The position numbers and the translations under genes were made by a program. Positions 8,799 through 28,408 of a stretch of 39,434 bases of DNA are shown here, in pieces. The DNA comes from a virus (Duplodnaviria > Heunggongvirae > Uroviricota > Caudoviricetes): IMG/VR virus record IMGVR_UViG_2541047689_000010. One strand, written 5' to 3'. Numbering within the stretch: position 1 is the first letter of the stretch; the number at the start of each line of letters is the position of its first letter. Under the pieces are notes generated by a model. The model ran no database searches. It saw nothing but the letters and a program-made list of their open reading frames with translations, and was not told where the DNA came from.

Positions 8799-8799
8799 T

Positions 8800-8811
8800 G
8801 TGACATGTCAC
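8800..8811. repeat. Perfect 12-bp palindrome GTGACATGTCAC, copy 1 of 3
   Basis: Read directly; one nt from the stop codon of 8813-9263 and immediately before the terminator hairpin. Confidence 0.8.
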
Positions 8812-8812
8812 G

Positions 8813-9263
8813 CTACTTGCGAAATCTTTCTTTACCCTTCCAGCCAGTAGATGTTAGTTCAGGATGAATGGTTCCCAATATAAAGCCAACCATAGCGGAG
8901 CGAGGATCTTCTATTTTATCCGTTAATTCTTCGGCATAACTCACAGGCAACCAAGCAACAAGATCACCAATCCTCAGCTTTGGTCCTTTGCTGTAAGATG
9001 AATCGGCAATAACAAAAAATCCACCATCAGCTGAGCACACCTTCAGCATTGCCCTTTGTCTTCCAGAATCTAGCAAAACTGGCTGTTCCCCACTTGGACC
9101 AGGTATGATGATGGCTGGCATTGGTTTATTGGCTGAAAGGCTTGTGTCAAGATACTTACACGCATACTCAAAAGCTGAAAAGTTATCCTTAAAGATAAGA
9201 GGTTGAATTTTATTGCTAACCTCCTTACCACCGATTAATCTGTTGATCATCTTCTTGAACATA
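8813..9263 (-). CDS. Hypothetical protein (about 149 aa), unknown function
   Basis: Start taken at ATG (MFKKMINR...) with SD AGGTGA 5 nt upstream; lies in the AT-rich accessory block. Confidence 0.5.
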
Positions 9264-9274
9264 AAGGTCACCTA

Positions 9275-9715
9275 ATGATTAAGCCGATGCACGCTATTAC
9301 AGCTACCGTTTTGTTTATCCTACCAATTTTTTCGTTTGCAAACGACATATGTTTTAAGAATTTAATAAATGAGGATATGTGTGCACATGCAAACAAAATT
9401 GCATCAGAAGCAGGAAAGTCACTTCCCATAAAATTGAATGATAATATGTCTATTGTTTCAATAAATGCAATACTAAACAAACTTTTAGTTGTAGCGCATC
9501 TTAATTACAACAACAGCTATTTATCAAAAGTTTATAACGGTGATGTAACCTTAGAAAATAAATTAAAGAGTGTAATGCGAAATTATTCAAAATCGAGCAT
9601 TTGCTCCAACAGGCAAATGAAAGCATTTATTCACCTTGGCGGAGAGATTGAATATAGGTATGTATTTAGTGATGGCAATATATTTGATACATACGCCATC
9701 ACTAATTGTGAATAG
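9275..9715 (+). CDS. Secreted/periplasmic small protein with cleavable signal peptide and four Cys; unknown function
   Basis: N-terminus MIKPMHAITATVLFILPIFSFA then NDICF...; AT-rich; stop abuts the stop of the convergent tail gene. Confidence 0.5.
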   Translation: MIKPMHAITATVLFILPIFSFANDICFKNLINEDMCAHANKIASEAGKSLPIKLNDNMSIVSINAILNKLLVVAHLNYNNSYLSKVYNGDVTLENKLKSVMRNYSKSSICSNRQMKAFIHLGGEIEYRYVFSDGNIFDTYAITNCE

Positions 9716-12700
9716 CTATTTCATCTGCTCTTCAACTTTATTTAGTAACGGTGATATCGCCCACAGGTTCTGAAAAGGTAGCATTTTACGGACCGCGTGG
9801 GTTTGCTGGCTGTCAAATTCTCCGTTAAGTACACCATTCGCAACCGTCGCGGCATCACCGCCAAGATCAAAGGTAGGACCAAGTAAAGCACCAATAGCAT
9901 TACGACTCTGAAACCTTGATACCGGAGGCGCACCAAACATCGCGCCAAGACCAAACCTACCGCCGCTTATGTTCTCAACGGTATTCAGCGGCTCAGAGAG
10001 CCAGCCAAGCATTCCGCCCCGGTCGATCCCCTCTTTCACAAGGTTATTCCAGCTGTAGTCGATATCGCGACCGCTTAACTTCTGTTTCATCATATAGACC
10101 ATTGAGCCAAGCGCAATCGTGCCAAGCGCACCAAGATAGAATGCAGCATCGCCCTGCTGGATACCAGATACTAGCACCCTGTTATGCTGTGCGAAGATAA
10201 ACGTTTTGAACTGCGTGATCATCTTCCAGCCTTCTTTACTAAAAAACAGCGGTGTATCACCTACGCCAGGCGTTACAATCACTGAGTCTACATCTTTCAG
10301 CACTGCAGACTGGAAAATCTCTCTAGCGAAACGGTCATCCCACAGATGACTATGCCCGGTTAACAGCCCGTCCATATCCTCTCCGTGCTTCCCGAATTGC
10401 TCCCCGATTCGGCGCAGAACATCTTCATTGATGCCGACCTGTGCCATCTTCCGCATTTCACTTTTGGAGAGCGTGCCACCAGCAGAAACTTGGCGAGCCG
10501 CGTCAAGTATCCTCGACTGCACTATCATCCCGGACCATGATTTAAGTGCGCTGTTCCACTGATTCATCAGCGTCCAGTTACCGAATTTCTGCGTCATCCA
10601 GTTCAGACCTCGCTCAGCGGCGCTTCTCCGGCTATAGGGGTCAGTAAGATCCGCTATAGCCTTTGTACGCGTAGACAGGACATAATCAAGCCCAACGGCC
10701 ATTTCTCGCAAATCCCTGGTTGCAATTTTCACTGAGTCCATATTTTTAAGCATGCTTACCATTGGTCCGAGAGATTTTCTCAGGCCATGCTGCATCATCG
10801 GTCGCATCAGATCAGTTGCAGCGGAGACAGTCATTCCACCAAGCAAACGGAGGAAGTTAATATTCCTAGCAACTCGCCCGGCACGAACAAAGAAACTGCG
10901 TGGATCTTGAGGTGCACCGTAAGTACCAAGCAGTCGATCACGCATAGCCGTAATATCCCTAATATCAGCCTCCCGTTGCTTCTCAAGAACTGCACGTCGT
11001 TTAGGTGTTTTAGCCTCTTTTATTAGCCGGGTATATTCCTCACTAACCTGACGGATTTGCTCCCCCATATCTTTACGGCCAAACTGCGCAGTCAGCTCAA
11101 TTTCTGGTGCCACCTGCCGGAGATAACTTTCCATGATGTAGTTAACATCTGATTCAAGAAAATCTTCTATACGCTCATCAGGAATAAGCAGCGTTCTGCT
11201 TTTAGTGAAACCAGCCCGACCAACGAGTCTCTCTGGGATAATATCGGCTGGTACAAGCCCGGAAGGTGCGCCTATTATTTTATTCACGATCTCGTCAGCA
11301 GCGTCCTCTGCTTCCTCTCGGGATAGAGGCTCCATCTGCTTCAGTGCTCGTTCGCGGCTTGCATTCAGCCTTGTGGTTGAATTTGCCCGTTTTTGCAGTC
11401 GGCGAAGCTCAGAACGATATTTCCGTGGATTATCCAGCAACTCCATATGGCGCTGATAGACAGGAAGCTCACTCTTTGCCTGCGCTATATCATCAAGGCG
11501 TGTTTTAAGGTCAGAGCTTTCTTTCATCATTCTTGCCTGAAGTTTTTCTGATGAAGTCTCGGCCAACTCTTTTTCTATTCTTGTAAGACGCGCCTGTGTG
11601 TCAGTCTCCTGAGATATAAGCTTATTTCGTTTATCCAGTTCTTCCATGAGTAGAATTTTTTTACCAGACCATTTCTCCGCTTCAGCGATTTCACTAGCGA
11701 GAGCATCAGCGCGCGGTGCCGATTCCTCTGCAGTTTTTAGCAATGAATTTATCCTTTCAATTCGCTGACCTGCTTTGTCAGCACCTTTGGCACTAATCCC
11801 TTGTATCCAGTTGGCAATTCGCCCTCTGAATTCAGTGCGGTCGGAAAGTATCTTATCGAACTTATAAATGCGGGGAAGATAACTTTTCGCCGTCACGACA
11901 TCGATATCCTCAGGAAGGATCCCCAGTTCCTGCATACGGGCTTTTGTGGTCTCGAAAATGGGGCGGATTCTGGCGGCTGCTTGTGAAACCTCAGGAATAT
12001 CACTCTGATCACCACGGCGCATAGCCATGCCAACAGCTTCATTGAAATCAATAAAGTTCATCCTCTTCACGCCGCGGGCGCTAACAGATTTGCTGTACTG
12101 CTGGTAAGCATCACGAGTGGCTTCCATCTGCTTATAAAGCATGGCGTCGTATTGCTTAATCTTAGTCTCGACTGCCGTAAACGTAGCCAACCCCTCATCA
12201 TTTTTGGCGAAGAAATAGTTATTTTCGGCAAGCTGCTGGTTAATCTGACGGGAGACAAGAGATGGTGATTGAGCCAAGCGGCCAGCAGGAGTGACACTCA
12301 ACGTTTTGTTAGCAAGTCCAAGTCCAGCGAGCTGTTCCTGATCGAGTGTGGTATTGAAAACCTGAGCTGCACCAATGCTTTGAGGAGAATCCATACCTCG
12401 CAAATGATTACCTACTGAGTTAACCACTGCCTCGCGCGCGCTAGGTCCAGCAAGTAGCTGTGCACCAGCACCAAGGATCCCACCAACGAGAGCATCAACA
12501 ACAACGTTCGATACGCTCTCCATCGGTGAGCGAGCTTCCTGAGTGGCCTGTAATGCGGCTTCTGATACTCCCCCACCAGCAGCATTCGCCAGGGCAAAAC
12601 GCCCTGCCGTCTCAGCAATACTTCCTCCACGCGCTACCGCCCCTACAGGGATAAACATTGCAGCCACATTAACCGGGTCTATCATTCCCATTGCTAAGCT

Positions 12701-13105
12701 TGAAATAGTACCAGCACCACCCATTTCAGATAGATATTCTCTATCTGTTCTTTGCTTATCGATTCGATGTTTAATTGCCATTGTTTCTTCATGCGAACCG
12801 GAGTTGATAAACGAATCTGCAAAATCTTCATAGCCTTTAATATCTGCTGCATCGTTATCAAATGGGTTATATCCTTCAACCCTGTCAAACTGACTGAAAG
12901 GAGCACTGGCAATAAAGCTACCCAGCGTGTTATCTATACGAAATGCTGCTTGTCTAGACCTTTGAACGCGTTGATCACTGGTAAATGGGTTCACAGCAGA
13001 AAGCAAAGAAGGTGTTTCCATATAGAAATTACTGTCATCAGGTGCTGCTATTTGCTGAATATCCTCGCCAAGCAACTCTTTAGGATCCTGTTCATATATC
13101 GGCAT
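9716..13105 (-). CDS. Large virion internal/ejection or tail protein (1129 aa) with extended coiled-coil region
   Basis: Size, position in the structural block, long charged helical segment; no tape-measure/sheath/tube set elsewhere, consistent with a podovirus internal core protein. Confidence 0.65.
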   Translation of the reverse strand: MPIYEQDPKELLGEDIQQIAAPDDSNFYMETPSLLSAVNPFTSDQRVQRSRQAAFRIDNTLGSFIASAPFSQFDRVEGYNPFDNDAADIKGYEDFADSFINSGSHEETMAIKHRIDKQRTDREYLSEMGGAGTISSLAMGMIDPVNVAAMFIPVGAVARGGSIAETAGRFALANAAGGGVSEAALQATQEARSPMESVSNVVVDALVGGILGAGAQLLAGPSAREAVVNSVGNHLRGMDSPQSIGAAQVFNTTLDQEQLAGLGLANKTLSVTPAGRLAQSPSLVSRQINQQLAENNYFFAKNDEGLATFTAVETKIKQYDAMLYKQMEATRDAYQQYSKSVSARGVKRMNFIDFNEAVGMAMRRGDQSDIPEVSQAAARIRPIFETTKARMQELGILPEDIDVVTAKSYLPRIYKFDKILSDRTEFRGRIANWIQGISAKGADKAGQRIERINSLLKTAEESAPRADALASEIAEAEKWSGKKILLMEELDKRNKLISQETDTQARLTRIEKELAETSSEKLQARMMKESSDLKTRLDDIAQAKSELPVYQRHMELLDNPRKYRSELRRLQKRANSTTRLNASRERALKQMEPLSREEAEDAADEIVNKIIGAPSGLVPADIIPERLVGRAGFTKSRTLLIPDERIEDFLESDVNYIMESYLRQVAPEIELTAQFGRKDMGEQIRQVSEEYTRLIKEAKTPKRRAVLEKQREADIRDITAMRDRLLGTYGAPQDPRSFFVRAGRVARNINFLRLLGGMTVSAATDLMRPMMQHGLRKSLGPMVSMLKNMDSVKIATRDLREMAVGLDYVLSTRTKAIADLTDPYSRRSAAERGLNWMTQKFGNWTLMNQWNSALKSWSGMIVQSRILDAARQVSAGGTLSKSEMRKMAQVGINEDVLRRIGEQFGKHGEDMDGLLTGHSHLWDDRFAREIFQSAVLKDVDSVIVTPGVGDTPLFFSKEGWKMITQFKTFIFAQHNRVLVSGIQQGDAAFYLGALGTIALGSMVYMMKQKLSGRDIDYSWNNLVKEGIDRGGMLGWLSEPLNTVENISGGRFGLGAMFGAPPVSRFQSRNAIGALLGPTFDLGGDAATVANGVLNGEFDSQQTHAVRKMLPFQNLWAISPLLNKVEEQMK

Positions 13106-15852
13106 TATTTGCCCCCTGCGTATATATTGCTCGGAAGGTAATTGGCTGAACCATAACCGAATGGTTTGGTCAGATCTGGAGGAGTATATCCATCTTTATT
13201 GCTGAACTGCGGCAGCGGATTGCCTTCTCTCCGCACTCTAGCCTCATCAACACGTTGTTGCTGGAACTGAATGGTTTGCCTGTACATTGGAGATGTCAGC
13301 TGATCCGGCTTGAAACGAACAGGGAGACCATTTTCTCCAATATAATTTCTCGGTTCTATCGCTCCGTTTGCGTCAGGCTGTAAAACCATAACAGCATAAC
13401 TCCTATCCCTTGCCGTAAGGCCATCAGAAACAAGTATTAAGTCCGTATCACTGCGAGGACCGCCAAAGGATTTTGATTTAAGCTCGCGTTTTTCCTGCTC
13501 CCACTGCCCCTGTATCCAGTTACCAGCACCATTATTTACTCCGTACAATGCCTCAGGTGCATACTTCATAACCTCTGCTTTGCCATTAACCGTAGAAACT
13601 CCCCAGGTGGTTCTGATCATGGCATTGGTCATTTTCTCAGCCTGTTCTGCATCGCCACCTGTCTGTACAAAGTTAGCATCGTAAATTGTCTGGTAATCTC
13701 GCTGATAGGCCGCATTTGATTTTCCTGGATCGGTAATATCCGGAGACCACGAACCAAAGGAAGTCAGACTGCTGGCGTTATTTTGTGCAGCAGTTGCCCT
13801 CGCCGCGACATATTTTTTGTCTCGCATGGCAGTGGAAAGCATCTGTTTCATTCGGTCATCCTGTTGGAACACCTGGCTGTAAGCCATATCAACAGCCTTA
13901 TCCTCCGGCACGCCAGCGCGGGAATAATCGTAAACCTTGCCGTAAAATGCCATCGTACTTTTATCAAGTGTTGCCGCTGCCGCCGGATTATTATCGAATA
14001 ACTGACCGTAGAATTTTGCCATCGGGACAACCAGCGCAGGATCTCTTGATGTTGCTCCACTGTTAAGCATTGTTTTAACCTGAGTTGGTATCATGCCGCT
14101 TTTAGTTGTGACGGTGACCAGTGTATTGATGCTCTGCGGATCAGATATGGAAAACGAAGGCGCGATATCCTGCGCGAAATAACGGTCTACCGCTGCCTGA
14201 TTGTTTTTGTCGTTCGGGTCCAGCGGGAAGTTATTTTGCATTGAAGACACGAACCTGTTTCTTCCCTGCTGAATCTCCCACTCCCTATCCATCTCTTTAA
14301 ATTTGGCCTGCATTTTCTCCCAGCGTTGCTGGTTAGCTGCAAATCCAGGAGCGTTTGGATCCTGTGGACGTAAACGTTCAAGAATGTCTTGTCGTCCTTC
14401 TGGAGTGAGGTCTTTAGCGGCACCAATGACACCTCCATATTGTATCTGCGCCTGCATATCCTTCCACTTCATAGCGCCAATGCGCGGACCATTGGCCCGG
14501 ATAAAATCGTCCTCAGAAGGTAACTTCTCAGGTTTCAATCCTTCATCAAGGGCTGAATATGCATCTTTAACTACGGTGCTAAGCTGGTCCGCATACTGCT
14601 GGCGGTACTGATTTCTCAGCTCATTAGCCTGCCTCAATGCCTGTATTTGCATTTGAGGGCTCATAGCATCAAATGCCGCATTGCCCGTATAACGCTTAGG
14701 TGAATCAAGGTTAGTTAGACCAAGGGCTGCCGAGATACCAGTTTCAAGCTGTTCGGTGCTATAAGGCATACTGCCATTTTCGTGTTTAATAATCCCAGCA
14801 CATAAAGCAGCTAGTGTCTTTGGGTTAGAGATATCAAGCTGATCATTCTCCCCAACACCAAGCTCACCACACAATTCCCTAATATAAGCATCAGTATTAT
14901 TACCATCACTAGCCGGAGCATAGCGATTAACAATCTCGCTAACGGTGTCATAGCCTTGACGCTGGTAAGACAACATATTTTTACCCAACGCGCGGATTCC
15001 ATGCTCAGGGGTAGCAAACGTTGCAAAACGTCCATCGCTACCGATCTGACCTTCCCACGGGTTAGATTTGCTCGCTTCAATATTACCAGGGTTATTATTA
15101 CGTAAACCACGAGCATCCAATGAATTACCATGTGATATTGCACGACTCACACCATCAAGATCCCCTGGCTCTCCATTAACCTGAAGAAACTCGTTGTATT
15201 TTTGAGCGATATTTCCTATCCATGCTTGCTGCCCCATTTGTTCCTTGAGCTGAGTTTTCTGCTGAACACGCCACTCATCAGGAAGCCCATGCGCATCAGC
15301 GTATTGATCAATAGATTCAAATCGCTGCTTGGCTAAATCGACAAATGCTTGGTTATCGCTATATAGCCCCGCAGACTGAGTGACAGCCAATGCATTTCCT
15401 GACAAATACGTTTGATCTTGGAATTGCTGAAACTGCCCAACTTCATATCGACGTGCCTGATTGTAATAAGACTGCATAGACTGCTGGAGTTGAAAGGATA
15501 ATTTATTCCTTTCCTCACTTTCAGGAATTGAGCCTAATAATGCCTGAGCCCTTTCCTGCATATTTTTCATAACAGCGTCACTCTGACCAAGAGCGTTTTT
15601 ACCCTGTTTAGAAATCAGCCCACTTTCAGGGTTGTTAATCTGGTCATCTGCAAATTGGTTAAATTGCAGTAACGCCTCCTGGGCCATAGCAACATTCGCT
15701 TTCTGCCTGGCTTCACCATATGCCACCGCATACTGATCTGCGACATTCGCCAGCACCTGACCTGCTTGAGGAACATCGAAGATCTGAAAACCACCGGTTT
15801 GCACACCACGACTTTGCACCTGGCGTCCGGATGTAGTAGGAACAACAGGCAT
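13105..15852 (-). CDS. Large virion internal/ejection protein (915 aa)
   Basis: Position and size; Q/N-rich; tightly packed with neighbours (shared boundary nucleotide). Confidence 0.65.
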   Translation of the reverse strand: MPVVPTTSGRQVQSRGVQTGGFQIFDVPQAGQVLANVADQYAVAYGEARQKANVAMAQEALLQFNQFADDQINNPESGLISKQGKNALGQSDAVMKNMQERAQALLGSIPESEERNKLSFQLQQSMQSYYNQARRYEVGQFQQFQDQTYLSGNALAVTQSAGLYSDNQAFVDLAKQRFESIDQYADAHGLPDEWRVQQKTQLKEQMGQQAWIGNIAQKYNEFLQVNGEPGDLDGVSRAISHGNSLDARGLRNNNPGNIEASKSNPWEGQIGSDGRFATFATPEHGIRALGKNMLSYQRQGYDTVSEIVNRYAPASDGNNTDAYIRELCGELGVGENDQLDISNPKTLAALCAGIIKHENGSMPYSTEQLETGISAALGLTNLDSPKRYTGNAAFDAMSPQMQIQALRQANELRNQYRQQYADQLSTVVKDAYSALDEGLKPEKLPSEDDFIRANGPRIGAMKWKDMQAQIQYGGVIGAAKDLTPEGRQDILERLRPQDPNAPGFAANQQRWEKMQAKFKEMDREWEIQQGRNRFVSSMQNNFPLDPNDKNNQAAVDRYFAQDIAPSFSISDPQSINTLVTVTTKSGMIPTQVKTMLNSGATSRDPALVVPMAKFYGQLFDNNPAAAATLDKSTMAFYGKVYDYSRAGVPEDKAVDMAYSQVFQQDDRMKQMLSTAMRDKKYVAARATAAQNNASSLTSFGSWSPDITDPGKSNAAYQRDYQTIYDANFVQTGGDAEQAEKMTNAMIRTTWGVSTVNGKAEVMKYAPEALYGVNNGAGNWIQGQWEQEKRELKSKSFGGPRSDTDLILVSDGLTARDRSYAVMVLQPDANGAIEPRNYIGENGLPVRFKPDQLTSPMYRQTIQFQQQRVDEARVRREGNPLPQFSNKDGYTPPDLTKPFGYGSANYLPSNIYAGGK

Positions 15853-16427
15853 CAGTAACCTCCTATTTTGAATCGGGAGTCAGAATTCATAAAACCTGAG
15901 TTAGATAACATTGGCGTCCCACCACTAGATGTACTTCCTTTAGAGAACGGACTCCACGTCCCACCAAACATCTGGTACGCACCGTATGCCTTCAGAGGCG
16001 CAGTGAGCAATGTTGTTGCTGCTCCCACATTCCCCTGTTTACGGGCTGAACTGGCTTCTGCTTTATAGTTGGCAGCCTGAACCTGATAACCGTAAGCCTC
16101 GCGTTGCGCGTTATTCACCGTCGTCAGCGAATCAAGAGCGCCAAACTGGGCAGTGTCGCCAAATATATCCAGCGCGTTACCTGTAGATAAATCAGCGCCG
16201 GTAGCCCCCATTGTCGCCGCCTGTGTACCAAGCCGCTGTCGGGTCTCTCTGCGTCGTTGCTCAGCTTCAGCGTTACCTCTGTTTATTGCATCATTTGCCT
16301 GAGCTGTGGCTATATCTGCGTTCGCTTCTGCAACCTTCGAGGCATACTTTCCCTGTTGGTACTGGGTGTATGCCTGAATGCCACTCATGGCGAGCATTGC
16401 GCCACCAGCAATAACCGGATCGCACAT
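15852..16427 (-). CDS. Virion structural protein (Ala/Gly/Gln-rich, 191 aa)
   Basis: Position within the structural operon; tight gene packing. Confidence 0.55.
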   Translation of the reverse strand: MCDPVIAGGAMLAMSGIQAYTQYQQGKYASKVAEANADIATAQANDAINRGNAEAEQRRRETRQRLGTQAATMGATGADLSTGNALDIFGDTAQFGALDSLTTVNNAQREAYGYQVQAANYKAEASSARKQGNVGAATTLLTAPLKAYGAYQMFGGTWSPFSKGSTSSGGTPMLSNSGFMNSDSRFKIGGY

Positions 16428-16891
16428 TATTTTCTCTCCATGTGAAATCTGTGGAAATTAAGACCAAGAGCACCATAAGGCGCGGCTTCTTCAAGCCTGA
16501 ATCCAAGCCAGTGCAGCCATGCTTTGGCAACATGGTTTCGCTCGTCGACGTAGTTTTCCAGGCGCGGATAAACTGCCAGCATCTGCTGCAATACAGGGCG
16601 GCAGTGGCGCAGAAATGTCTTCTGATATTTTTCAATACGGCTGGTTCCTACCAGCCATGGCGTACCATTGCCACCGATCATTGACGCCGGAGATACACCA
16701 AACATGGTTACCAGTTCTCCGTTCGCGAACCCTGACCAGGCCATAGTCGCAGTGCGAAGACCAACGCGCAGCGCATCTTCGGTAGTCATCAGCGATACCG
16801 CATACAGTTCGTCAATATCAGCCTGACGAACATCCGGCAAAATCATCTGAAGATGCTCTTCGGTAGCGGGAATAATTTGAACATCGATCAT
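16427..16891 (-). CDS. Virion-associated protein (154 aa), unknown function
   Basis: Position within the structural operon. Confidence 0.5.
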   Translation of the reverse strand: MIDVQIIPATEEHLQMILPDVRQADIDELYAVSLMTTEDALRVGLRTATMAWSGFANGELVTMFGVSPASMIGGNGTPWLVGTSRIEKYQKTFLRHCRPVLQQMLAVYPRLENYVDERNHVAKAWLHWLGFRLEEAAPYGALGLNFHRFHMERK

Positions 16892-19967: not shown

Positions 19968-20296
19968 TACTCACCCCCATTGCCGTACAGAGTTTCAGCC
20001 GCTGATTTTTCTACATCCCCGGAAACAGGAGCGATCGCCATATCAGTGATCTGCAGATCGGCGCTGCGATTAACACCATCGTCAGTTTCTCTGGCAGACA
20101 GGCCTCGAATAACAGCCTTTGCAGTTATCATCACTTCTGTTCCGACGCCCTGAGGTTGCGCCTTCAGCTTATTCAATGTGTCGTTATTAAGAGTGATGCA
20201 CAGCCCCCACGGGTATTCATCGCGAGTTCTGGTTTCTCCGCTCTCATCCTGGTAGCTGTCAGTGCCGGTTTTGAGGTTTACGAGTTCCATATACAC
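19967..20296 (-). CDS. Small virion protein (109 aa)
   Basis: Position; compact packing. Confidence 0.5.
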   Translation of the reverse strand: MYMELVNLKTGTDSYQDESGETRTRDEYPWGLCITLNNDTLNKLKAQPQGVGTEVMITAKAVIRGLSARETDDGVNRSADLQITDMAIAPVSGDVEKSAAETLYGNGGE

Positions 20297-20340
20297 TCCT
20301 GCAATAAAGGGGCCGAAGCCCCTTGTCGGATTCGCGAGGC

Positions 20341-20685
20341 TTACACGCCCAGTTCTTTACGCTTATCTGCGATCTTCTCGCGGAGCGTTTCGGCTTTGGC
20401 GTTATGGTGTGGCTTCTCGTTAAAGAGCAATTCGTACTCTTCACGGAGCTTATCCAGTTCACCATCATCTGACACATCGTTGATGATTTTGGTGCTGGTT
20501 GCTGCCATAGACACCTTTCCTGCTACCTTTGCTTTTGCCTGTCTGGCTGCATCGTTAACAGGTTCCAGTGCGCTACCAGGCTCACCTTCGTATTCGATTT
20601 CTGCCCCCTCCGGCCACAGTGTGTTATGGATATGAGAGAGGCGCAGAACGCGGTATCTTGGTTTCTCACCTGACATCGATATCAC
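20341..20685 (-). CDS. Small virion-associated protein (114 aa)
   Basis: Position; compact packing. Confidence 0.5.
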   Translation of the reverse strand: MISMSGEKPRYRVLRLSHIHNTLWPEGAEIEYEGEPGSALEPVNDAARQAKAKVAGKVSMAATSTKIINDVSDDGELDKLREEYELLFNEKPHHNAKAETLREKIADKRKELGV

Positions 20686-20686
20686 C

Positions 20687-21124
20687 TTAACCAGTTACTT
20701 TTGAGCGGATCGGATACGGCGTATTGGCATCAACATCAAGACTGATACCAGCAGTGAATTCGCCAGCCGTTAGTGGGCCAGTTGCGACGGAGTAGTTAAC
20801 ACGCAGATATCGCTGAACACCGGCAGGCACCTTTGCAGAAACAACTCGTTTACCTGCTGTCATGGCGGTCTTTGCCAGTGCGCCACTATCATAAATAGTG
20901 GTCCATGAGCTGTTATTCTCACTCGTCTGCAACTGGATGTTTACAGTTGCATCACCGCTTGCCGCGGCGGCTGTGTTAACCAGCGCCCAAAACTCAAGCG
21001 GGTAACCCACGCCGATATCACGACGTTTTCCGTCAATTGGACCGAGATCGATTACGTCAGTAGAAGCCGCGGTATTCGTAACCGCCTGAGCTTCGGAGAA
21101 CATCAACAGTTTGTCGGTGATCAT
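20687..21124 (-). CDS. Putative capsid decoration/accessory protein (145 aa)
   Basis: Immediately downstream of major capsid gene; Ala/Thr/Val-rich beta-type composition. Confidence 0.5.
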   Translation of the reverse strand: MITDKLLMFSEAQAVTNTAASTDVIDLGPIDGKRRDIGVGYPLEFWALVNTAAAASGDATVNIQLQTSENNSSWTTIYDSGALAKTAMTAGKRVVSAKVPAGVQRYLRVNYSVATGPLTAGEFTAGISLDVDANTPYPIRSKVTG

Positions 21125-21175
21125 CTTCTTTCTCCATTAGTGGGTCTGTTACGATCCACAGGTTAATAACAGGCG

Positions 21176-22168
21176 TTACACCACGCGGGCTTCTGTTTCC
21201 AGAAGCGCATCAGTTTCACGGATTGGTACACCACGGAATGAAGTCCACCACTCGCCTTCTGTCTCTTTTACGCTGATCGCCAGAGATGTTTTCTCCAGAG
21301 ATTGCAGATCAAGAGCCTGGCCTACAGTGCGGTTCATGTAGAACACCGGGCGACCCATGCCACGATTTGGAATGCGATGCAGTGCTTTAACCATCAACTT
21401 CGCAATATTTGCGGCAGAGGAAGGTTCTGAAAGATTGCTGACATCGATGTTTGCAATGCGAACAACATAACGCCAGTCACGCAGAGCAAGTCCGTTGTCC
21501 CATTTGTAATGGGTACGGTAGCCTTCGTACTTGCCGCCATTCGCATCTTCCAGTGTCACCTGGCCTTTATCTTCCATCTGGATGCCAGCCTTCTGCCCTT
21601 TCGGGAAGATGCCATGCACGGTGTTTTCGCCCCACACCACTAACCAGATTGAGGTGTTATCTGTACCCGTGCCACCAGCATCAATGATGTTCTGAGCATT
21701 ACCCGCAGACAGGCTGGAATAGCGGGAGGACAGTCCCATAAACTGCTGAGGGTTAACGCTGGAATCACCATAAAACAACGTCTGCGCCATCTGCTGATTC
21801 ATCGCTTCAATAAATGCGCGGTCTTCAGACAGGCGGAATTCGGCGGTATTACCGTTCAGATCAGCCAGTGACTTATCGACTTCAGCATAGGTTTCCAGCA
21901 TTCCAACGGAATCGGTGACCTGCACTGTGGTTGATTTGCTTGGCTGTACGCCATAGTTCAGCAAACGCCAGGTGGCCGAAGGTAAACCAGAACGAATGGT
22001 GGTTCGGTGTCCGGTAGGAAGGTTCCCTTCGACAAAAGGCATATCCTGAAGGATCGGGTTAGTTTGACCGAGAAGCTCGATAATCTTATCGACTTTCCCG
22101 TTTGGATCGACGCGCTTACCCCAGTCAGCCAGCGTTAGCGCAGTTAAGCCTTTAACAGCCATTGTCAT
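21176..22168 (-). CDS. Major capsid protein
   Basis: 330 aa, directly after scaffold gene and before decoration-like gene; size and order typical of HK97-fold capsid proteins. Confidence 0.7.
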   Translation of the reverse strand: MTMAVKGLTALTLADWGKRVDPNGKVDKIIELLGQTNPILQDMPFVEGNLPTGHRTTIRSGLPSATWRLLNYGVQPSKSTTVQVTDSVGMLETYAEVDKSLADLNGNTAEFRLSEDRAFIEAMNQQMAQTLFYGDSSVNPQQFMGLSSRYSSLSAGNAQNIIDAGGTGTDNTSIWLVVWGENTVHGIFPKGQKAGIQMEDKGQVTLEDANGGKYEGYRTHYKWDNGLALRDWRYVVRIANIDVSNLSEPSSAANIAKLMVKALHRIPNRGMGRPVFYMNRTVGQALDLQSLEKTSLAISVKETEGEWWTSFRGVPIRETDALLETEARVV

Positions 22169-22176
22169 TTCCTCTC

Positions 22177-22872
22177 TTATTTGCCATAGAGCACTTCGGC
22201 CGCACTACGCTGGCCTTCATTACCACCGGTGACCATGCCATCTTCAGACATCGCCTTTCCGATTTTCACGAACGTTTTGACCAGATCAGGGTGATTACCC
22301 AGCCCGGTGGTGTTCAGATATTCTTTGAGCTCAGGTGTCCCGAACTGGTCAAGCGCACGCTGTGCGGCGCTAAGGTTAGAAATCAACTTGTCGCCACCGA
22401 TTTCTTTGTCAGCTTTTACATCCGCAGCCCACTGCTCGGTTGTTTTCTGCCAGGCTTCTGCCTGGCGCTGCTGAACACCTGCCAGAATCTTCGGATAAGC
22501 ATCAACCAGCTTTTGCGCTTGCTCGTTGGTCAGGTTAAGTCCTCGCGCCACAGGCTCGAATTCCTTCAACGCTTCTGTATCCAGCTCTACGCCTTCGGCA
22601 GCCTGAAACTCGTACTTCTCAGGCGCACCCTCTGGTTTATTGCCGTCCTTTTTTTCATCCTGCTTATCGTTTTCAGGCTTTTTGTCATCAGCAGGTTTAT
22701 CGCCATCAGCAACAGGTTGTGGCTTATCACCTTCCTGTTGTGATGGATCACCAACTGGAGCATGGTTATCACCTGCAGGCGCTGATGGTTCTGACGCAGC
22801 CGGAGCTGCTCCACCATCGACTGGTTGCTCATTGCAAAGACGGCGATACAGCAAACGCTCAAATAAATTCAT
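22177..22872 (-). CDS. Scaffolding protein
   Basis: Start at ATG (MNLFERL...) with AGGAG SD; acidic, Pro/Ala/Lys/Asp-rich low-complexity N-terminal region and helical C-terminus; between portal and capsid. Confidence 0.6.
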   Translation of the reverse strand: MNLFERLLYRRLCNEQPVDGGAAPAASEPSAPAGDNHAPVGDPSQQEGDKPQPVADGDKPADDKKPENDKQDEKKDGNKPEGAPEKYEFQAAEGVELDTEALKEFEPVARGLNLTNEQAQKLVDAYPKILAGVQQRQAEAWQKTTEQWAADVKADKEIGGDKLISNLSAAQRALDQFGTPELKEYLNTTGLGNHPDLVKTFVKIGKAMSEDGMVTGGNEGQRSAAEVLYGK

Positions 22873-22874
22873 GA

Positions 22875-23171
22875 TCACTCCTGTTCACTGGCCTCTTTGG
22901 CCATCTTCAAATACTGTTCAGGGCAATGCGCCATAACGCGCTGAAACAGTTCCAGCGCCAGATTGCGTTGCCCCTCATTAAATGCCATTGCCATAGCGTC
23001 CATCGGTGAGATAGCGGAAAACACACGGCCTTTCTCCAGCACCGACCAGACAACGCGACGCCCCTGTTCACTGCTCATGACAAAGCGAATGTCATCAATT
23101 TCACGCTGCGCCATGTCACGTTGCTTACGGGCGTTTTCTTCTTTCAGTTGATCGTCTTCGTAATCTGTCAT
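22875..23171 (-). CDS. Small head-associated protein (98 aa)
   Basis: Overlaps portal stop by 4 nt; charged helical. Confidence 0.5.
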   Translation of the reverse strand: MTDYEDDQLKEENARKQRDMAQREIDDIRFVMSSEQGRRVVWSVLEKGRVFSAISPMDAMAMAFNEGQRNLALELFQRVMAHCPEQYLKMAKEASEQE

Positions 23172-24847
23172 TGTGATTGCCCACCCTGACCACTAACTGC
23201 ATTCGCCATAGCTGACAAAACACTCGGATCCGAAGTTTTAGCTTCGCTTAGCGTCTTGGCACCCTGTGCCGCCGCCATCCCCATCGCCATCATTTGTTGC
23301 TGCTGTTGCTGCTGTGCCCGTTGCTGGCGAGCCTGCTCAACCTGTTCCTGCGGAACAATGACGGTTGGAGACACTCCGGACATATCAGCGAATGCATCGA
23401 TCGCCTGATCAACGTTGAGTTTGTCGAGAGCTTCTGGTTTCGCTTGCGCAAGTTGACCAATGAAGTTAACCGTGGACGCCAGACTGGACAGGCCGATAGA
23501 CTTCTGCGCCTGAGCCATGACGGAAATGTATTCGACCTTCAGGGGCATACCTTCCATCGCGTCAGGCGGTGGCGGCAGCATGTTTTTACGCACCATCATC
23601 GAGAAAGCGCGGTCAATGAGAGGGTTAAGACATTCGTCGTTCAGACGCTCCAGAACCGGCCCCAACATCAGAAGTTTTTCTTCTTTCATTTCGATCACCG
23701 CTTCAACAGGCATCGAGCGGGTATTGATGTTCTGCAACATCATGAACAGATCGACAAAGTAGGCGCTGTTAATGATTTGACGAGTGTCCTGAATGTCTGC
23801 TACCAGATCTGCTGTACTGGGGTTAACCAGATAAGCAGGCCTGAAACCATCCTGACCAGTAATCTGATCGATATACGTGATGTCGCCAGGAAGAAGGGAG
23901 GCGCGCTGATTCTTGAGGGAAGTCGGAGCAACCATCGGCGGATTGGTGGCTTTATCAATCAACTGCGACTTGCGCTTCTGGAGAAGCTGCAATGCCTTAA
24001 CAGGTCCAAGCGCCAGCATACCCGGGCATGATGATCCATAAACATCTTCGCCATTAACTTCCCAGCGCGGAGCCATAATTGGAAACTCATCAAATCCGGA
24101 CTCACGCAACAACTTGTCGTTATCGCCACCAACCTCGTAATAAACCGATTTGAATGGCTTGTTCTTGCTATCCAGCTTCGATGTATCGCGGTCAATGTTC
24201 GGGTAAACCGAATGCATCACGTCAATCCACTTCTCGTAGGTGCCGCTTTCCCACATGCTTTTTACGGATTCGCTGACGTTATTTAGCCCGAACTCCTGAA
24301 CAAGCTGACGAACAGTCATAGAGAACTTGCGAAAACAGGTGTCCACACTGCCACGAGGTGAGTTAGCCAGGTAGTAACTGCCTATCGGGAATGGCATTGT
24401 GCGAATGATGTCCTCGTCATCCTCCAGCACCGCCATTGCACCAGTGCTGTATGTGCCGAGGCTTCCGTATAACTGCGGAAGAGACTGGTAGAGATTCGAC
24501 TTATTGAACATATCGTTCATGCGGTTCTGCACCGCCTCAAGCCACAACTTAACAGGGCCATAATCCATCATTTCAGGATCTGGCGTAGCCAGGCGAAACC
24601 ACGGACGCGCGGGGCTTGTGATGCCTGACATCATGCCGCTGGCGAGAGTGCGCGCCGCCATAGTCCCGGTCGAATCAATAATGCGTGTATTGCGTCGATC
24701 GTTACGGTTGACCTCAGAAGTCAGAAAGCGGGAACCACGCGGGTTGATGTAATCACTCAACTCGCGCCAGTGCGGCTCGAACGACTGACGCTCGCTTTCA
24801 AGTTGTGCGAACTGTTTGTTCAATCGCTCTTTAGTTGTTTCCGCCAT
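23168..24847 (-). CDS. Portal (head-tail connector) protein
   Basis: 559 aa; position after terminase; Gln-rich C-terminal tail (QQRAQQQQQQQMMAMGMAAAQGAK) typical of podovirus portals. Confidence 0.8.
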   Translation of the reverse strand: MAETTKERLNKQFAQLESERQSFEPHWRELSDYINPRGSRFLTSEVNRNDRRNTRIIDSTGTMAARTLASGMMSGITSPARPWFRLATPDPEMMDYGPVKLWLEAVQNRMNDMFNKSNLYQSLPQLYGSLGTYSTGAMAVLEDDEDIIRTMPFPIGSYYLANSPRGSVDTCFRKFSMTVRQLVQEFGLNNVSESVKSMWESGTYEKWIDVMHSVYPNIDRDTSKLDSKNKPFKSVYYEVGGDNDKLLRESGFDEFPIMAPRWEVNGEDVYGSSCPGMLALGPVKALQLLQKRKSQLIDKATNPPMVAPTSLKNQRASLLPGDITYIDQITGQDGFRPAYLVNPSTADLVADIQDTRQIINSAYFVDLFMMLQNINTRSMPVEAVIEMKEEKLLMLGPVLERLNDECLNPLIDRAFSMMVRKNMLPPPPDAMEGMPLKVEYISVMAQAQKSIGLSSLASTVNFIGQLAQAKPEALDKLNVDQAIDAFADMSGVSPTVIVPQEQVEQARQQRAQQQQQQQMMAMGMAAAQGAKTLSEAKTSDPSVLSAMANAVSGQGGQSQ

Positions 24848-24861
24848 TTCAATGACTCCGG

Positions 24862-25068
24862 TTACTGACCAAGCAGCGTTTTACCGCTGGTATTAGCGGT
24901 TGATGTGTCGCCCTGAGAACCGGTAAGCAGCGTAGAACTACGACCAGCAGCAGCGCGACGGCGACGAGTTTCTTCGTCTCGGGCATCAACAACGGCGGAA
25001 TCCTGCTCCTGTGGTGCTGCCTGAACTTCTGGTGTTGCAGGCACTGATGGTGAGCTACCCATGCACAT
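24862..25068 (-). CDS. Possible small protein upstream of portal (frame uncertain)
   Basis: Two overlapping short ORFs in the track; chosen frame has a more protein-like hydrophilic composition. Weak. Confidence 0.3.
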   Translation of the reverse strand: MCMGSSPSVPATPEVQAAPQEQDSAVVDARDEETRRRRAAAGRSSTLLTGSQGDTSTANTSGKTLLGQ

Positions 25069-25157
25069 ATCAATGACTCCGTACGCAATTAAATTATTAC
25101 CAATTTAACCACATATGATTTATTTATCGTAGGCAGTTGACATTTAACGCGCGAATT

Positions 25158-25174
25158 ATTACCCTTCGGGTAAC
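25158..25174. promoter_or_regulatory. Operator-like dyad ATTACC-N5-GGTAAC next to a TTGACA hexamer (25137-25142)
   Basis: Read directly; upstream of tRNA/moron module. Confidence 0.5.
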
Positions 25175-25495
25175 AAAAAAGTTCATTCCGGTTACTAACC
25201 TGACTGGCTTGTCGTTAAATTGAACAGGTGGAGTGAGCTTTTATTTTGAGCAGTACGGCGTATGGCACATGCGACGATAGCGGTCTGGATACGTTTAAGG
25301 GGCACCCTACCTTGCTCGGGCAAACGAACCAGGTAGCCGGAATGTGCAAGTCGAGCGGTTTTATTCCGCGCACGGGGATTCACCATCCCGGCGATTCGGT
25401 GTGACGCCTCGGAAGAGACGAGGGTACAACGATGAGAGCATTTATGGAGCCGCGACAAAGTGTGGCGCCTTAACAGGCTAAGTGCTCTCAGCGTT

Positions 25496-25572
25496 GTGGC
25501 ATTAGCTCAGTTGGACAGAGCAACCGCCTTCTAAGCGGTTGGTCGCAGGTTCGAATCCTGCATGCCACACCA
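25496..25572 (+). tRNA. tRNA-Arg (anticodon UCU, reads AGA)
   Basis: Manual cloverleaf: acceptor GTGGCAT/ATGCCAC, D-arm GCTC...GAGC, anticodon stem ACCGC/GCGGT with loop CTTCTAA, T-arm GCAGG-TTCGAAT-CCTGC, discriminator A and encoded CCA. Confidence 0.8.
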
Positions 25573-25770
25573 GAATCACGCCTAAGGACCGTGATGCCAG
25601 AAGTTCCAGGGGCTTGGCGGTGATGGTTTCCCTTGAAGGACTATCACCGCCCTTTTTACAGCAGGACGCCATTGCGATGACTTCATGCTGTAAACCCGTA
25701 CAGCCACGGAAGGCATAACTCATTGCTTCCAGTTCGCCCGGTTCGCCGGGCATTTTTTTAAGGTGAGATT

Positions 25771-26127
25771 ATGAACGACCAGCAAATCGAAAAAGAAATC
25801 GTTGAGAAAGGCAAAACCGCTCCGCGAGTTACGCCTCAATATATCGAAAGCATCATTCTTGAAGAGCATTTCTTTACTGCTTATGACGGCATTCGTGCTG
25901 CCAATATGGGCGTTGGCGATTCATGGACAGCGCATAAATCTACAGACCTCCTGACTTTCTGCGTATTGGTACTGAAGAATGGCTTCACCGTCACCGGAGA
26001 GAGTGCCTGTGCAAGTCCGGAAAATTTTGATGCAGAAATTGGTCGGAAGATTGCCCGGCAGAATGCTGTAAACAAAATCTGGATGCTCGAAGGTTACTTG
26101 CTGAAGCAGAAGTTAAGCGAGCAATAA
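25771..26127 (+). CDS. Small conserved prophage protein (118 aa), unknown function; moron co-oriented with the tRNA
   Basis: ATG with SD AAGGTGAG; followed by palindrome copy 2 and an intrinsic terminator. Confidence 0.55.
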   Translation: MNDQQIEKEIVEKGKTAPRVTPQYIESIILEEHFFTAYDGIRAANMGVGDSWTAHKSTDLLTFCVLVLKNGFTVTGESACASPENFDAEIGRKIARQNAVNKIWMLEGYLLKQKLSEQ

Positions 26128-26131
26128 CACC

Positions 26132-26143
26132 GTGACATGTCAC
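26132..26143. repeat. Perfect 12-bp palindrome GTGACATGTCAC, copy 2 of 3
   Basis: Read directly; 4 nt after the stop of 25771-26127 and 4 nt before the terminator stem. Confidence 0.8.
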
Positions 26144-26147
26144 AAAC

Positions 26148-26174
26148 AGCCAGCCGATGAGCTGGCTTTGTTTT
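26148..26174 (+). terminator. Intrinsic terminator
   Basis: AGCCAGC-cgatga-GCTGGCT followed by TTGTTTT. Confidence 0.65.
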
Positions 26175-26217
26175 ATCCTCACCAGAGGATATCAACGACA
26201 TTATCCCCACCAGCGGA

Positions 26218-27693
26218 TTAAGCATAGGGATCGTAATCTGTGATGGCCTTGCCTTGCTGGTTCTGCTGACCGGGAATTCGCAGACGCTTCGACACAGGGA
26301 ACGCAAACGTCAGCAGTAGCGCATCGCCTTTACCAGGAGAACGCCCAAGCCGCTCTTTGATATCTTCCTTCGGTTCGATAACGATTTTACCGTCCACTCG
26401 AACTTTGTACTCTGCCGCCGACAGGTCGTCCGCTGTTTCATGGTCATCCAGCATGCCGCCAAGCCTCAGCCATGTCTTGCATGAGTTGAACATCTCCCCA
26501 CGCTTGTTGAGCATCTGCGGGTCAGTAGACGCGCCACCGAACGGAACAAGTTGCCATGTACGACCCCAGCCGTCACCGATTGACTTCAAACCGGTTCCGT
26601 AACCAAAGTCGATGAACACCGCGTCAGCCTGATACTGGTCTTCAAAGTCAGCGATACGCTTCGCCATAATCAGATCGTCGGTAGTCTTGTTTCCAGTCCA
26701 CAGCACCTTACTGTGTAGCCCCTGCCGCAGGTATATCACAGCGTCATCAACGCCGGAGTATGCCGGGTCAACGCCGATTATCACCGGAGCATGTGCAACC
26801 TGCGCAGCGGTTACCACCCGTTTTATTGCCTCGTCAGTAAGACCGGTAGGGATAAACTGCAATTCAGATGCATCAGGGAATATGCCACGCACACGGATTT
26901 TAACGAAGTCGCTGTCTTCCCCGTAGTCATCAACCCATTTCTGCAACTGCTGTTTGTTGGTACCTTCCACCGTCCGACTGTCAATCTGCGCAGTTTTCCA
27001 GCGGTGTTTATACTTGCGGAAACATTCACGGAAACGTCCGGTATTACGCGTCGGGTTTCCGAACGCCACCCAGATAATCTCAGTGTCTTCGTCCGTTAGC
27101 GCACCCTCGGCAACTTCCCACACCAGATCCGCAATGTTCGACGCTTCATCGAATACCACGATGATGCGTTTGCGCTCATTGTGTAATCCGGCGAATGCCT
27201 CAGTGTTGTGCTCAGACCAGGGGATTGCGTCAGCTCGCCACCGCTTGTCGTGCCCAGGGTCATTGCTGTACATCGCGGTAGCGGTACAGGTAAACCAGTC
27301 TTTCGTGATAGCAAGGTTCGACCACTTGATAATTTCCGGCCAAGTCTTCGTTCGTAGCTGGTTGTCGGTGTTGGCGGTCACCACGACCTTACAATCCTCG
27401 CAAGTGGACATGCCCCAGTTGATCAGCATTGAGATGAATGCGGATTTACCAATACCGTGACCAGAAGCGCGTGCCAGCATAAGCGGCTGATAGCGCGTCT
27501 CTGGATTCTGCAGGTGATCACGTATCTCTCGGAACGCATCAGCCTGCCACTGACGTGGGCCGGTGGCATGTGCCAGTTCAGTCCCCTCTTCCCCCCACGG
27601 GAACGCATAGAGGGCATAGCCAAGCGGATCGTGAGTGAACCCTGCAATATCTTCGATTAACTGCTCTTCAGGAGATAACACTGCATCTGTCAC
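26218..27693 (-). CDS. Terminase large subunit
   Basis: 491 aa; Walker A-like GHGIGKS; acidic Walker B-like IIVVFDEASN; nuclease-type C-terminal half; overlaps small-subunit gene. Confidence 0.85.
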   Translation of the reverse strand: MTDAVLSPEEQLIEDIAGFTHDPLGYALYAFPWGEEGTELAHATGPRQWQADAFREIRDHLQNPETRYQPLMLARASGHGIGKSAFISMLINWGMSTCEDCKVVVTANTDNQLRTKTWPEIIKWSNLAITKDWFTCTATAMYSNDPGHDKRWRADAIPWSEHNTEAFAGLHNERKRIIVVFDEASNIADLVWEVAEGALTDEDTEIIWVAFGNPTRNTGRFRECFRKYKHRWKTAQIDSRTVEGTNKQQLQKWVDDYGEDSDFVKIRVRGIFPDASELQFIPTGLTDEAIKRVVTAAQVAHAPVIIGVDPAYSGVDDAVIYLRQGLHSKVLWTGNKTTDDLIMAKRIADFEDQYQADAVFIDFGYGTGLKSIGDGWGRTWQLVPFGGASTDPQMLNKRGEMFNSCKTWLRLGGMLDDHETADDLSAAEYKVRVDGKIVIEPKEDIKERLGRSPGKGDALLLTFAFPVSKRLRIPGQQNQQGKAITDYDPYA

Positions 27694-28286
27694 TGATTAC
27701 CATCCTGACGTTCTTTGAGTCGCTTCCTGGCTGCCGCTATGCGATCAGCAATTGTCACATTCACATTAACATCCAGGCGCTCTTTGAACGCGTTGACGTC
27801 GACGTGCTTACCGATAAGCTCGAGGTTCTTCACCTTGTCAGGCCATTTAATTTTTTTGAGGATTGTCTCTATCGAATCCTCGTTCATGTTCATGATGGTC
27901 GATGACAGATCAAAGCCGCTAAGCGTAGTGCGCCAGATTTTCGGCCACTCGCGGATTGGCTTAAGGCTCCCATCGTCGTTGAGGATGTCGATCACGTCCA
28001 TCTGGTCGATCTCCACCAGGCGCATGAGAACGTAATCAGCACTGACGCGCATTCGTTTGTTGCGCTCCTCCATCAGCTCGGCAATCCGTTTTTGAATGCG
28101 TTCATCGCGCATCATGACACTGGCTTTAACTGCCGCTGTATTTGGGGAGAATCCTGCGTTAATCGCTGCCTGAGTCTGGTTTTCAGGCGTTTTGATGTAT
28201 GACTGGCAATAAGCCTCCTGCATTGCTGTTAGTGGCTTAAATTGCGTTGATTTGCGTTTATAGGTTTTAGGTTCAGCAGGCATCAT
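27690..28286 (-). CDS. Putative terminase small subunit
   Basis: Directly upstream of and overlapping the large terminase; start set at internal ATG because the longer track ORF would include an intrinsic terminator hairpin. Confidence 0.5.
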   Translation of the reverse strand: MMPAEPKTYKRKSTQFKPLTAMQEAYCQSYIKTPENQTQAAINAGFSPNTAAVKASVMMRDERIQKRIAELMEERNKRMRVSADYVLMRLVEIDQMDVIDILNDDGSLKPIREWPKIWRTTLSGFDLSSTIMNMNEDSIETILKKIKWPDKVKNLELIGKHVDVNAFKERLDVNVNVTIADRIAAARKRLKERQDGNQ

Positions 28287-28328
28287 AACCACCGTGGTAA
28301 TAGTTACCGTTGTGGTAATAGTACCATG

Positions 28329-28355
28329 CAAAATAAAGCCGCCATAGTTGGCGGC
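28329..28355 (-). terminator. Intrinsic terminator (minus strand) separating the early cluster from the packaging/late genes
   Basis: Minus-strand GCCGCC-AACTAT-GGCGGC followed by TTTATTTTG. Confidence 0.55.
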
Positions 28356-28396
28356 AGTATTCAAAACCCATCAAATTCATCATGCATAATCTACTC

Positions 28397-28408
28397 GTGA
28401 CATGTCAC
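28397..28408. repeat. Perfect 12-bp palindrome GTGACATGTCAC, copy 3 of 3
   Basis: Read directly; overlaps the TGA stop of 28405-28743. Confidence 0.8.

Follow-up and report, generated by a model that had tools for sequence, protein, structure and literature searches.

Introduction

The matS site with its reader MatP, the operators of ribbon-helix-helix (RHH) repressors and the Q/qut late antitermination systems of lambdoid phages are the closest described counterparts of the element reported here, a 12-bp palindrome, GTGACATGTCAC, that occurs three times in a 39,434-nt stretch of viral DNA (IMG/VR record IMGVR_UViG_2541047689_000010; the whole stretch is referred to as the window). The window holds a prophage that is a phiV10/epsilon15-like podovirus (Uetakevirus) of Escherichia coli, and one copy of the palindrome contains the stop codon of a gene for a Cys-rich protein of 112 residues, the probable reader of the site. 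The matS site is 13 bp long (GTGACRNYGTCAC, with the consensus GTGAC[AG]N[CT]GTCAC; PMC3603311), and true matS has been reported to be absent from 500 prophages. The phage element shares with it the inverted GTGAC half-sites, a putative reader of RHH type and the occurrence of a few dispersed sites per DNA molecule instead of one promoter operator. It differs in its spacing, which is shorter by one base (all sites of the window are 12 bp long), and in its location, as the sites lie in prophage and phage genomes and are not confined to the Ter macrodomain. The phage protein, moreover, lacks the four-helix bundle and the coiled coil of MatP and carries a Cys4 knuckle instead.

The RHH repressors Arc, Mnt, CopG and AmrZ and the TacA/ParD antitoxins resemble the phage protein in its modelled RHH fold and in having a two-fold symmetric DNA target linked to the gene. 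These repressors bind their own promoters, whereas the phage sites are found over the gene's stop codon and at further boundaries between transcription units; the phage protein is also set apart by a conserved basic helix added at the N terminus and by a zinc knuckle at the C terminus, and has no toxin partner. The arrangement at the third copy, in the Uetakevirus lineage only, recalls lambdoid Q/qut, with the regulator gene last in the early operon, followed by the site, a terminator, and terS and the late genes, such that gene and site are juxtaposed in cis. Unlike in the lambdoid systems, the Cys-rich protein is without homology to Q families and without a Pfam or NCBIfam match, N15 and the lambda-like phage Chlobot carry a Q of their own besides it, and no conserved promoter embeds the phage site. 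As in DksA and TraR, a long helix, here a modelled one, precedes CxxCG..[LIV]P...G..C, but the Cys spacing differs (CxxC-x17-CxxC in DksA/TraR, CxxC-x8-C-x7-C in the phage protein) and the similarity is below normal thresholds.

Two further classes of repeated sequence were considered and set aside. Repetitive extragenic palindromes and bacterial interspersed mosaic elements (REP/BIME) are imperfect palindromes of ~35 bp present in hundreds of copies per host genome, whereas the 78-nt island that holds the first copy of the 12-bp element is found in 527 of 5426 E. coli genomes, with a median of one per genome, and is thus no host-wide repeat. The site of the host regulator CRP has the consensus TGTGA-N6-TCACA; the palindrome reads TGTGA-N4-TCAC[A/G], so that its spacing is wrong for CRP.

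Results

Three copies of the palindrome at the ends of transcription units

The palindrome GTGACATGTCAC occurs exactly three times in the window (copies 1 to 3; Table 1), compared to 0.0023 copies expected from base composition (probability of three or more, ~2e-9) and 0 copies in 100 dinucleotide shuffles, and it is the sole perfect 12-bp palindrome that occurs there more than once. A preliminary description, made from the letters of the DNA alone, had located these three exact copies correctly and judged them far beyond chance, which the count of 3 versus 0.002 expected bears out. It had also noticed that copies 2 and 3 have the 14-mer CGTGACATGTCACA in common; this 14-mer is also present at copy 1, on the minus strand, which had escaped notice. 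The reported distances from the stop codons were right as well, being 1 nt for copy 1 and 4 nt for copy 2, with the stop inside the palindrome for copy 3. The further claim that a terminator directly follows each palindrome is accurate for copies 1 and 2, whose hairpins begin after 0 and 4 nt, and only loosely so for copy 3, whose hairpin is located 41 nt downstream, after a spacer that is the remnant of a deleted open reading frame (ORF) of phrog_1541. In relatives this 70-codon ORF is intact and lies between palindrome and hairpin (10357-10569 in contig L140). Taken alone, the palindrome fails as an intrinsic terminator, having a folding energy of -1.2 kcal/mol and no U tract, while the neighbouring hairpins qualify. 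No Rfam family matched the palindrome, and a literature search found no publication on the motif or on the Cys-rich protein.

The three copies mark the 3' ends of three units, namely the early-right operon (copy 3), an antisense moron (copy 2) and the late structural operon (copy 1). Following the minus strand, one passes from the early-right operon into the Cys-rich gene at 28405-28743 and on to copy 3, a terminator, matches to a repressor motif and terS. The 5' ends of units in the window carry matches to the epsilon15-type motif ATTACC-N5-GGTAAT, which is annotated as prophage-repressor sites in the epsilon15 record. Allowing up to 2 mismatches, 13 matches were found versus 1.1 expected (positions 6176, 6556, 7597, 13126, 25158, 28285, 28303, 31079, 31141, 33063, 33448, 34160 and 34222). 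Most of these stand at the 5' end of a unit; terS and the portal block are among the units with matches immediately upstream. This placement hints that the late operons are under direct repressor control, and the late unit may have a repressor-controlled promoter of its own; no convincing promoter was found between the copy-3 terminator and terS. Given the repressor-motif matches in this interval, a Q-like antiterminator is not clearly required here, and a role of the Cys-rich protein as a Q-type late antiterminator was rejected on this ground and on that of the separate Q genes of N15 and Chlobot.

An inverted site with invariant arms and a free centre

Comparison across phages indicates that GTGACATGTCAC is one instance of a more general site, GTGAC-N2-GTCAC, with invariant 5-bp arms and a free centre. 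The Salmonella phage epsilon15, whose Cys-rich protein is ~78% identical, likewise carries exactly three sites, each syntenic with one of the copies in the window, with different hairpins and flanks; copy 1 is also kept in phiV10 and has its syntenic equivalent in epsilon15, and the epsilon15 counterpart of copy 2 adjoins another hairpin sequence. In phiV10, two copies are exact and one has a single mismatch, the degenerate one being its copy 3, GTGACATGTTAC. Scanning viral contigs with the 14-mer returned more than 120 loci of two recurring classes. In one, homologues of the Cys-rich gene have their stop codon covered by the palindrome and are followed by unrelated DNA; in the other, a stop codon is followed by the palindrome, 0-12 nt and a terminator, after many unrelated genes and with many different hairpins. 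Outside the seed sites, the centre varies (CT, AC, GT) with arms unchanged. The locus set seeded with the 14-mer contains 142 GTGAC-N2-GTCAC sites versus 4 of the control GTCAC-N2-GTGAC, and the control is absent from six complete phage genomes and three unseeded locus sets. The 13-bp form, GTGAC-N3-GTCAC, is absent from all four locus sets, its sole occurrence being one site in Vibrio phage K308. This site, GTGACACCGTCAC (L124 19491), fits the true matS consensus and is present besides three 12-bp sites.

The temperate telomere phage N15 has three GTGAC(TG/CA)GTCAC sites, one of which holds the stop codon of gp46. Across the N15 clade (49 loci, 0.88 Mb), we counted 105 sites versus 0.84 expected; they occupy three syntenic places, and their arms are invariant and their centres variable. 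One N15-like site is situated inside repA, where the 12-mer is kept although the codons around it have diverged. At the end of the repA operon, the N15 site (L122 28550) lies inside a longer palindrome, CCCCGTGACCAGTCACGGGG in relatives, and a -35-like hexamer, TTGACG, is found ~24 nt downstream of it, facing the antirepressor operon. Vibrio phage K308 and its 75%-identical relative L336 have three sites each, one of them 19-20 nt upstream of the terS ATG.

With regard to context, the Uetakevirus sites are next to terminators, whereas in N15, Chlobot, L140-type, Vibrio and L344 phages a site is found immediately upstream of a Shine-Dalgarno sequence and ATG. A site repeatedly lies just upstream of terS (Uetakevirus, K308, L336, L344 and L341). 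The notion that the palindrome is always beside a terminator, which the three copies in the window had suggested, does not extend beyond this phage genus, the contexts being lineage-specific. Judged over all lineages, the common theme is that the sites lie at boundaries between transcription units, with one site kept by the gene's own 3' end.

Other roles for the palindrome were examined and discarded. The phiV10 record starts inside copy 3, which merely reflects the custom of opening a record behind the stop of the final gene and does not point to a cos or genome-end function; a packaging or pac-site role does not agree with the N15 sites, which are far from cos and terS. Finally, -35-type arrangements at the palindrome (GTGACA-N17-TAAATT in epsilon15, GTGACA-N18-CATGAT in the window) are not kept in L140-type relatives.

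Linkage of the site to the Cys-rich gene

To look at the association from the side of the protein, we used a sample of 80 close homologues fetched by protein alone and unseeded by the motif, 78 of which had a readable gene end. The exact palindrome lies over the stop codon in 76 of these 78, in two different downstream contexts. Homologues that are 48-80% identical and have unrelated downstream DNA keep the site, including centre variants such as GTGACCTGTCAC, and the gene of N15 gp46 (~35% identical) ends GCG-TGA-CTGGTCAC. Among distant representatives (30-36% identical), likewise looked up by protein identity alone, the TGA is again embedded in the site in L338, L342 and L344. The Mu-like phage L340 has a C-terminally extended homologue in which the site is kept as GTGACTGGTCAC (10349-10360) and translated V-T-G-H, at the aligned position where other family members stop. 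In L343, the only lineage with a site at the gene's 5' end, it is located 3 nt before the gene's own ATG, and L339 has a tandem pair of sites 2 kb from the gene. The phage L341, with a protein 35% identical, has no 12-bp site and two 11-bp GTGAC-N1-GTCAC sites (13222 and 16056), one of them ~55 nt upstream of terS; the 11-bp spacing could covary with the protein. A search for relatives of this 11-bp-spacing lineage (P0221) found none. In all, a site overlapping or adjoining the gene's stop, together with further sites nearby, was seen in Uetakeviruses, in N15-like telomere phages, in lambda-like and Mu-like phages, and in Vibrio and other siphoviruses, with 0.01-0.04 sites expected per locus. 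Gene and site recur together in many temperate phages that have otherwise no relationship to each other.

A natural experiment is provided by loci seeded on the gp49_66 moron and split by the presence of the RHH gene. The 27 loci that have the gene (0.49 Mb) contain 52 sites, and the 52 loci that lack it (0.91 Mb) contain zero. In the phages without the RHH gene, the moron, up to 99-100% identical, ends in a different, palindrome-free terminator. Furthermore, the Cys-rich protein is the only, or nearly the only, protein common to the window and N15, K308 or Yersinia phage 42.18.

Predicted fold of the Cys-rich protein

The 112-residue protein matches no Pfam or NCBIfam family. It belongs to phrog_536, a small family (148 cluster representatives) labelled 'transcriptional regulator'. 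AlphaFold with a diverse alignment gave a model with a pLDDT of 93, compared to 70 for an earlier model from a shallow alignment. This high-confidence model predicts an RHH fold with a C-terminal zinc knuckle (Cys4). It comprises a basic helix spanning residues 5-19, in which R8 and R13 hardly vary, an extended segment at about 22-29, a helix at 30-42, a long helix at 52-75, the Cys cluster at 79-99 and a short helix.

Compared against the PDB, the family profile found its best matches in TraR (E = 0.044) and YbiI (E = 0.064), over residues 49-110, and hhalign against TraR returned a probability of 61% with E = 8e-5. We treat this likeness of the C-terminal part to TraR/DksA as a lead only. 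Foldseek of the model against the PDB returned no match. Homology to MatP was also considered and dropped, as hhalign of both the narrow and the diverse family profile against the E. coli MatP sequence was not significant, with the limit that a search for MatP homologues yielded only near-identical sequences; MatP's Pfam families are not among the matches listed for the Cys-rich protein.

Features and neighbouring genes

The coordinates of the palindromes and adjoining features are collected in Table 1. The start of terS deserves comment, since a TTG at 28364 is the start of the mechanically called ORF (27690-28364) and of the terS annotated in phiV10. Reading from this codon passes through the terminator hairpin, and the alignment to epsilon15 terS led us to reject it in favour of the ATG given in the table. 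The moron terminator at 26148..26176 is weak or non-functional in the late (minus) direction.

Table 1. Palindromes, terminators and adjoining genes in the window
Feature	Position	Strand	Remarks
Palindrome copy 1 (S1), GTGACATGTCAC	8800..8811		1 nt after stop of last late-operon gene (TAG, 8813-8815, minus strand); abuts terminator hairpin
Late-operon intrinsic terminator, hairpin 8799-8782 and T tract	8773..8799	-	Terminator scan, RNA fold; annotated terminator in phiV10
Variable gene, phrog_9944	8813..9271	-	Function unknown; stop precedes copy 1; differs among relatives
Palindrome copy 2 (S2)	26132..26143		Between antisense moron stop (TAA, 26125-26127, plus strand; 4 nt off) and moron terminator, just downstream of terL
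Moron gene, Phage_gp49_66 family	25771..26127	+	Pfam PF13876, E = 1.7e-34; upstream of copy 2
Moron intrinsic terminator, hairpin 26148-26167 and T tract	26148..26176	+	RNA fold
Palindrome copy 3 (S3)	28397..28408		Holds TGA stop (28405-28407, minus strand) of gene for predicted RHH/zinc-knuckle protein
Gene for Cys-rich 112-residue protein, phrog_536	28405..28743	-	Corresponds to phiV10 p55 and epsilon15 gp49; distant relative N15 gp46
41-nt spacer	28356..28396	-	Remnant of 3' end of deleted 70-codon ORF (phrog_1541), from comparison with L140
Early-right operon terminator, hairpin 28355-28338 and T tract	28330..28355	-	RNA fold; rho-independent terminator annotated syntenically in epsilon15
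Two tandem repressor-motif matches	28285..28319		One mismatch each; between terminator and terS, at 5' end of next unit
terS	27690..28286	-	Start is ATG at 28286, by alignment to epsilon15 terS

Copy 1 is flanked by three cargo ORFs with unknown functions, at 7848-8714 (plus strand, phrog_3630), 8813-9271 (minus strand, phrog_9944) and 9275-9715 (plus strand, phrog_8772). They have no DNA match in the cultured-phage collection, and between them only the island of ~75 nt made up of palindrome and terminator is conserved. As to the ORF missing at copy 3, its intact form (phrog_1541) ends in DEFDGL before the stop, and a tail ending in EFDGF is also seen beside copy-2-type sites in contigs L060 and L112; these shared ORF tails suggest rearrangements between palindrome copies. 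Elsewhere in the window, Rfam families isrK (6608-6684) and C4 antisense RNA (6703-6790), both on the plus strand, lie directly upstream of an anti-repressor (Ant) gene (6794-7531, plus strand), forming a block in this Uetakevirus prophage that resembles the P1/P7-type immI antisense-controlled antirepressor module. A tRNA gene (25496-25569, plus strand, 74.6 bits) is located between the moron and the portal block, overlapping the mechanically called ORF 25502-25753 on the minus strand; in related typing phages a tRNA-Arg is annotated at this place.

Discussion

In the explanation we favour, to which we assign a probability of roughly 65%, GTGACATGTCAC would be the operator, that is, the DNA docking site, of the RHH/zinc-knuckle protein encoded at 28405-28743. 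The preliminary description had proposed a binding site for this protein, and the comparative data favour that proposal because gene and site are linked in many independent lineages, the predicted RHH fold is a DNA-binding one and no site is found where the gene is absent. A protein dimer would place its two-fold symmetric RHH sheet and the basic N-terminal helices on the two GTGAC arms, and such symmetric reading of the DNA would explain why the 5-bp arms are complementary and the 2-bp centre is free. The protein's own gene keeps one site at its 3' end, and the TGA falls within this site, so that the protein would be made next to a site of action. As to what binding might achieve, our tentative guess is that the bound protein controls the passage of RNA polymerase over unit boundaries, deciding whether transcription ends or runs on into the next unit, above all into terS and the late genes; the C-terminal domain, with its faint likeness to TraR/DksA, may help by contacting the polymerase. 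A strong forward roadblock at the site is unlikely, since the mRNA of the upstream gene would be truncated.

Several observations weigh against an operator function. For an RHH repressor, which as a rule occupies the promoter of its own gene, a site at the gene's 3' end is atypical, and the contexts vary by lineage (terminators, positions before a Shine-Dalgarno sequence and ATG, the interior of repA) with no single regulatory logic. The linkage itself has gaps, as there is no site in the gene-bearing L337 or in L345 (a 3.9-kb contig), the L341 lineage has a spacing of 11 bp in place of 12 bp, and the single site of Yersinia phage 42.18 is 3.4 kb from the gene. The co-occurrence signal, moreover, comes largely from a few clades, so that the counts are not phylogenetically independent, and the support for binding is comparative throughout.

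Other explanations differ in what they let the site or the protein do. The protein could be a DNA-tethered elongation or termination factor whose TraR/DksA-like module engages polymerase at operon boundaries, deciding between read-through and termination into terS and the late genes, at the antisense morons and at N15 repA; a more speculative variant would see in it a phage and plasmid-prophage mimic of MatP/matS that acts on SMC-type complexes (MukBEF or Wadjet-like). We regard this role as unlikely. An RNA-level element, in which a hairpin with a 4-bp stem and a CNNG loop would act, alone or bound by protein, on the adjacent terminator, on mRNA stability at the 3' end or on how the following cistron is translated, would suit the position of all three copies in transcribed 3' untranslated or intercistronic RNA, and also the sites 3-20 nt before a Shine-Dalgarno sequence and ATG (N15 gene 47, Chlobot, L140 orf70, terS of K308 and L344, and the L343 gene itself). 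Of the few arm variants seen in nature, two (GTGGCATGTCAC, and GTGACATGTTAC of phiV10) would keep G-U pairing on the sense strand, with such variants being too few for a test of strand bias. Yet the conserved C5 and G8 are complementary and unable to pair across a 2-nt loop, as fits a DNA dyad and not a tetraloop; the 2-nt gap between the 5-bp arms bars a 5-bp hairpin, and the remaining 4-bp stem is worth only -1.2 to -2.7 kcal/mol, with -1.2 kcal/mol for the palindrome alone. Considering, in addition, that the linked protein has the predicted fold of a classic reader of double-stranded DNA, that one N15 site is inside the repA coding sequence and that Rfam gives no match, we find the RNA processing or stability element of the preliminary description less likely than a DNA site, and quite improbable as the function of the palindrome.

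The GTGAC arms could also attract a host factor, the site then being a pseudo-matS bound by MatP or by another GTGAC-reading host protein that ties phage DNA into chromosome organisation. Against this, the spacing is 12 bp throughout, the 13-bp form being confined to the one site in Vibrio K308, and prophages are reported to avoid matS; nor would a host reader account for the coincidence of the site, in many lineages, with the stop codon of one particular phage gene, or for its absence from related phages that lack this gene. We therefore give this possibility very little weight. Equally hard to credit is a passive recombination linker, a conserved junction that survives through module exchange or by travelling with terminators and has no binding function. 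The pattern behind this idea, which the preliminary description had framed as a module boundary for moron exchange, is real: the homology of relatives stops at the palindrome edge, 7 different genes are joined upstream of copy 1 and 4 upstream of copy 2, the downstream modules vary at copy 3, and incoming ORFs often end at a TGA supplied by the palindrome. Descent cannot, however, give invariant arms with varying centres across lineages that are 30-80% identical in protein, and it explains neither a site kept inside the diverged repA coding sequence nor the association with many unrelated hairpin sequences. Coinciding junctions are, conversely, expected if a selected site is the last homology between diverged modules. 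Boundary formation as the purpose of the palindrome is thus doubtful, and recombination at it more probably follows from the presence of a conserved functional site, module junctions falling there because a binding site with invariant arms and variable centres has been under selection.

An RHH regulator with its operator is known in kind, and what is unusual in the case of the Cys-rich protein is the embedding of the site in the regulator's stop codon, its placement at the 3' ends of units, its arms, which are matS half-sites set one base closer together, and the possible TraR-like domain. The finding provides a testable function and a precise DNA target for a widespread 'hypothetical' family, phrog_536 (epsilon15 gp49, phiV10 p55, N15 gp46), which spans podo-, sipho-, Mu-like, lambda-like and telomere phages of enterobacteria and Vibrio. 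Since mosaic junctions coincide with it, the palindrome also illustrates concretely how a conserved site in cis serves as the crossover point when phages exchange modules. If the bound protein does control the passage of polymerase, this would help to explain how Uetakeviruses separate early from late expression without a recognised Q- or N-like factor.

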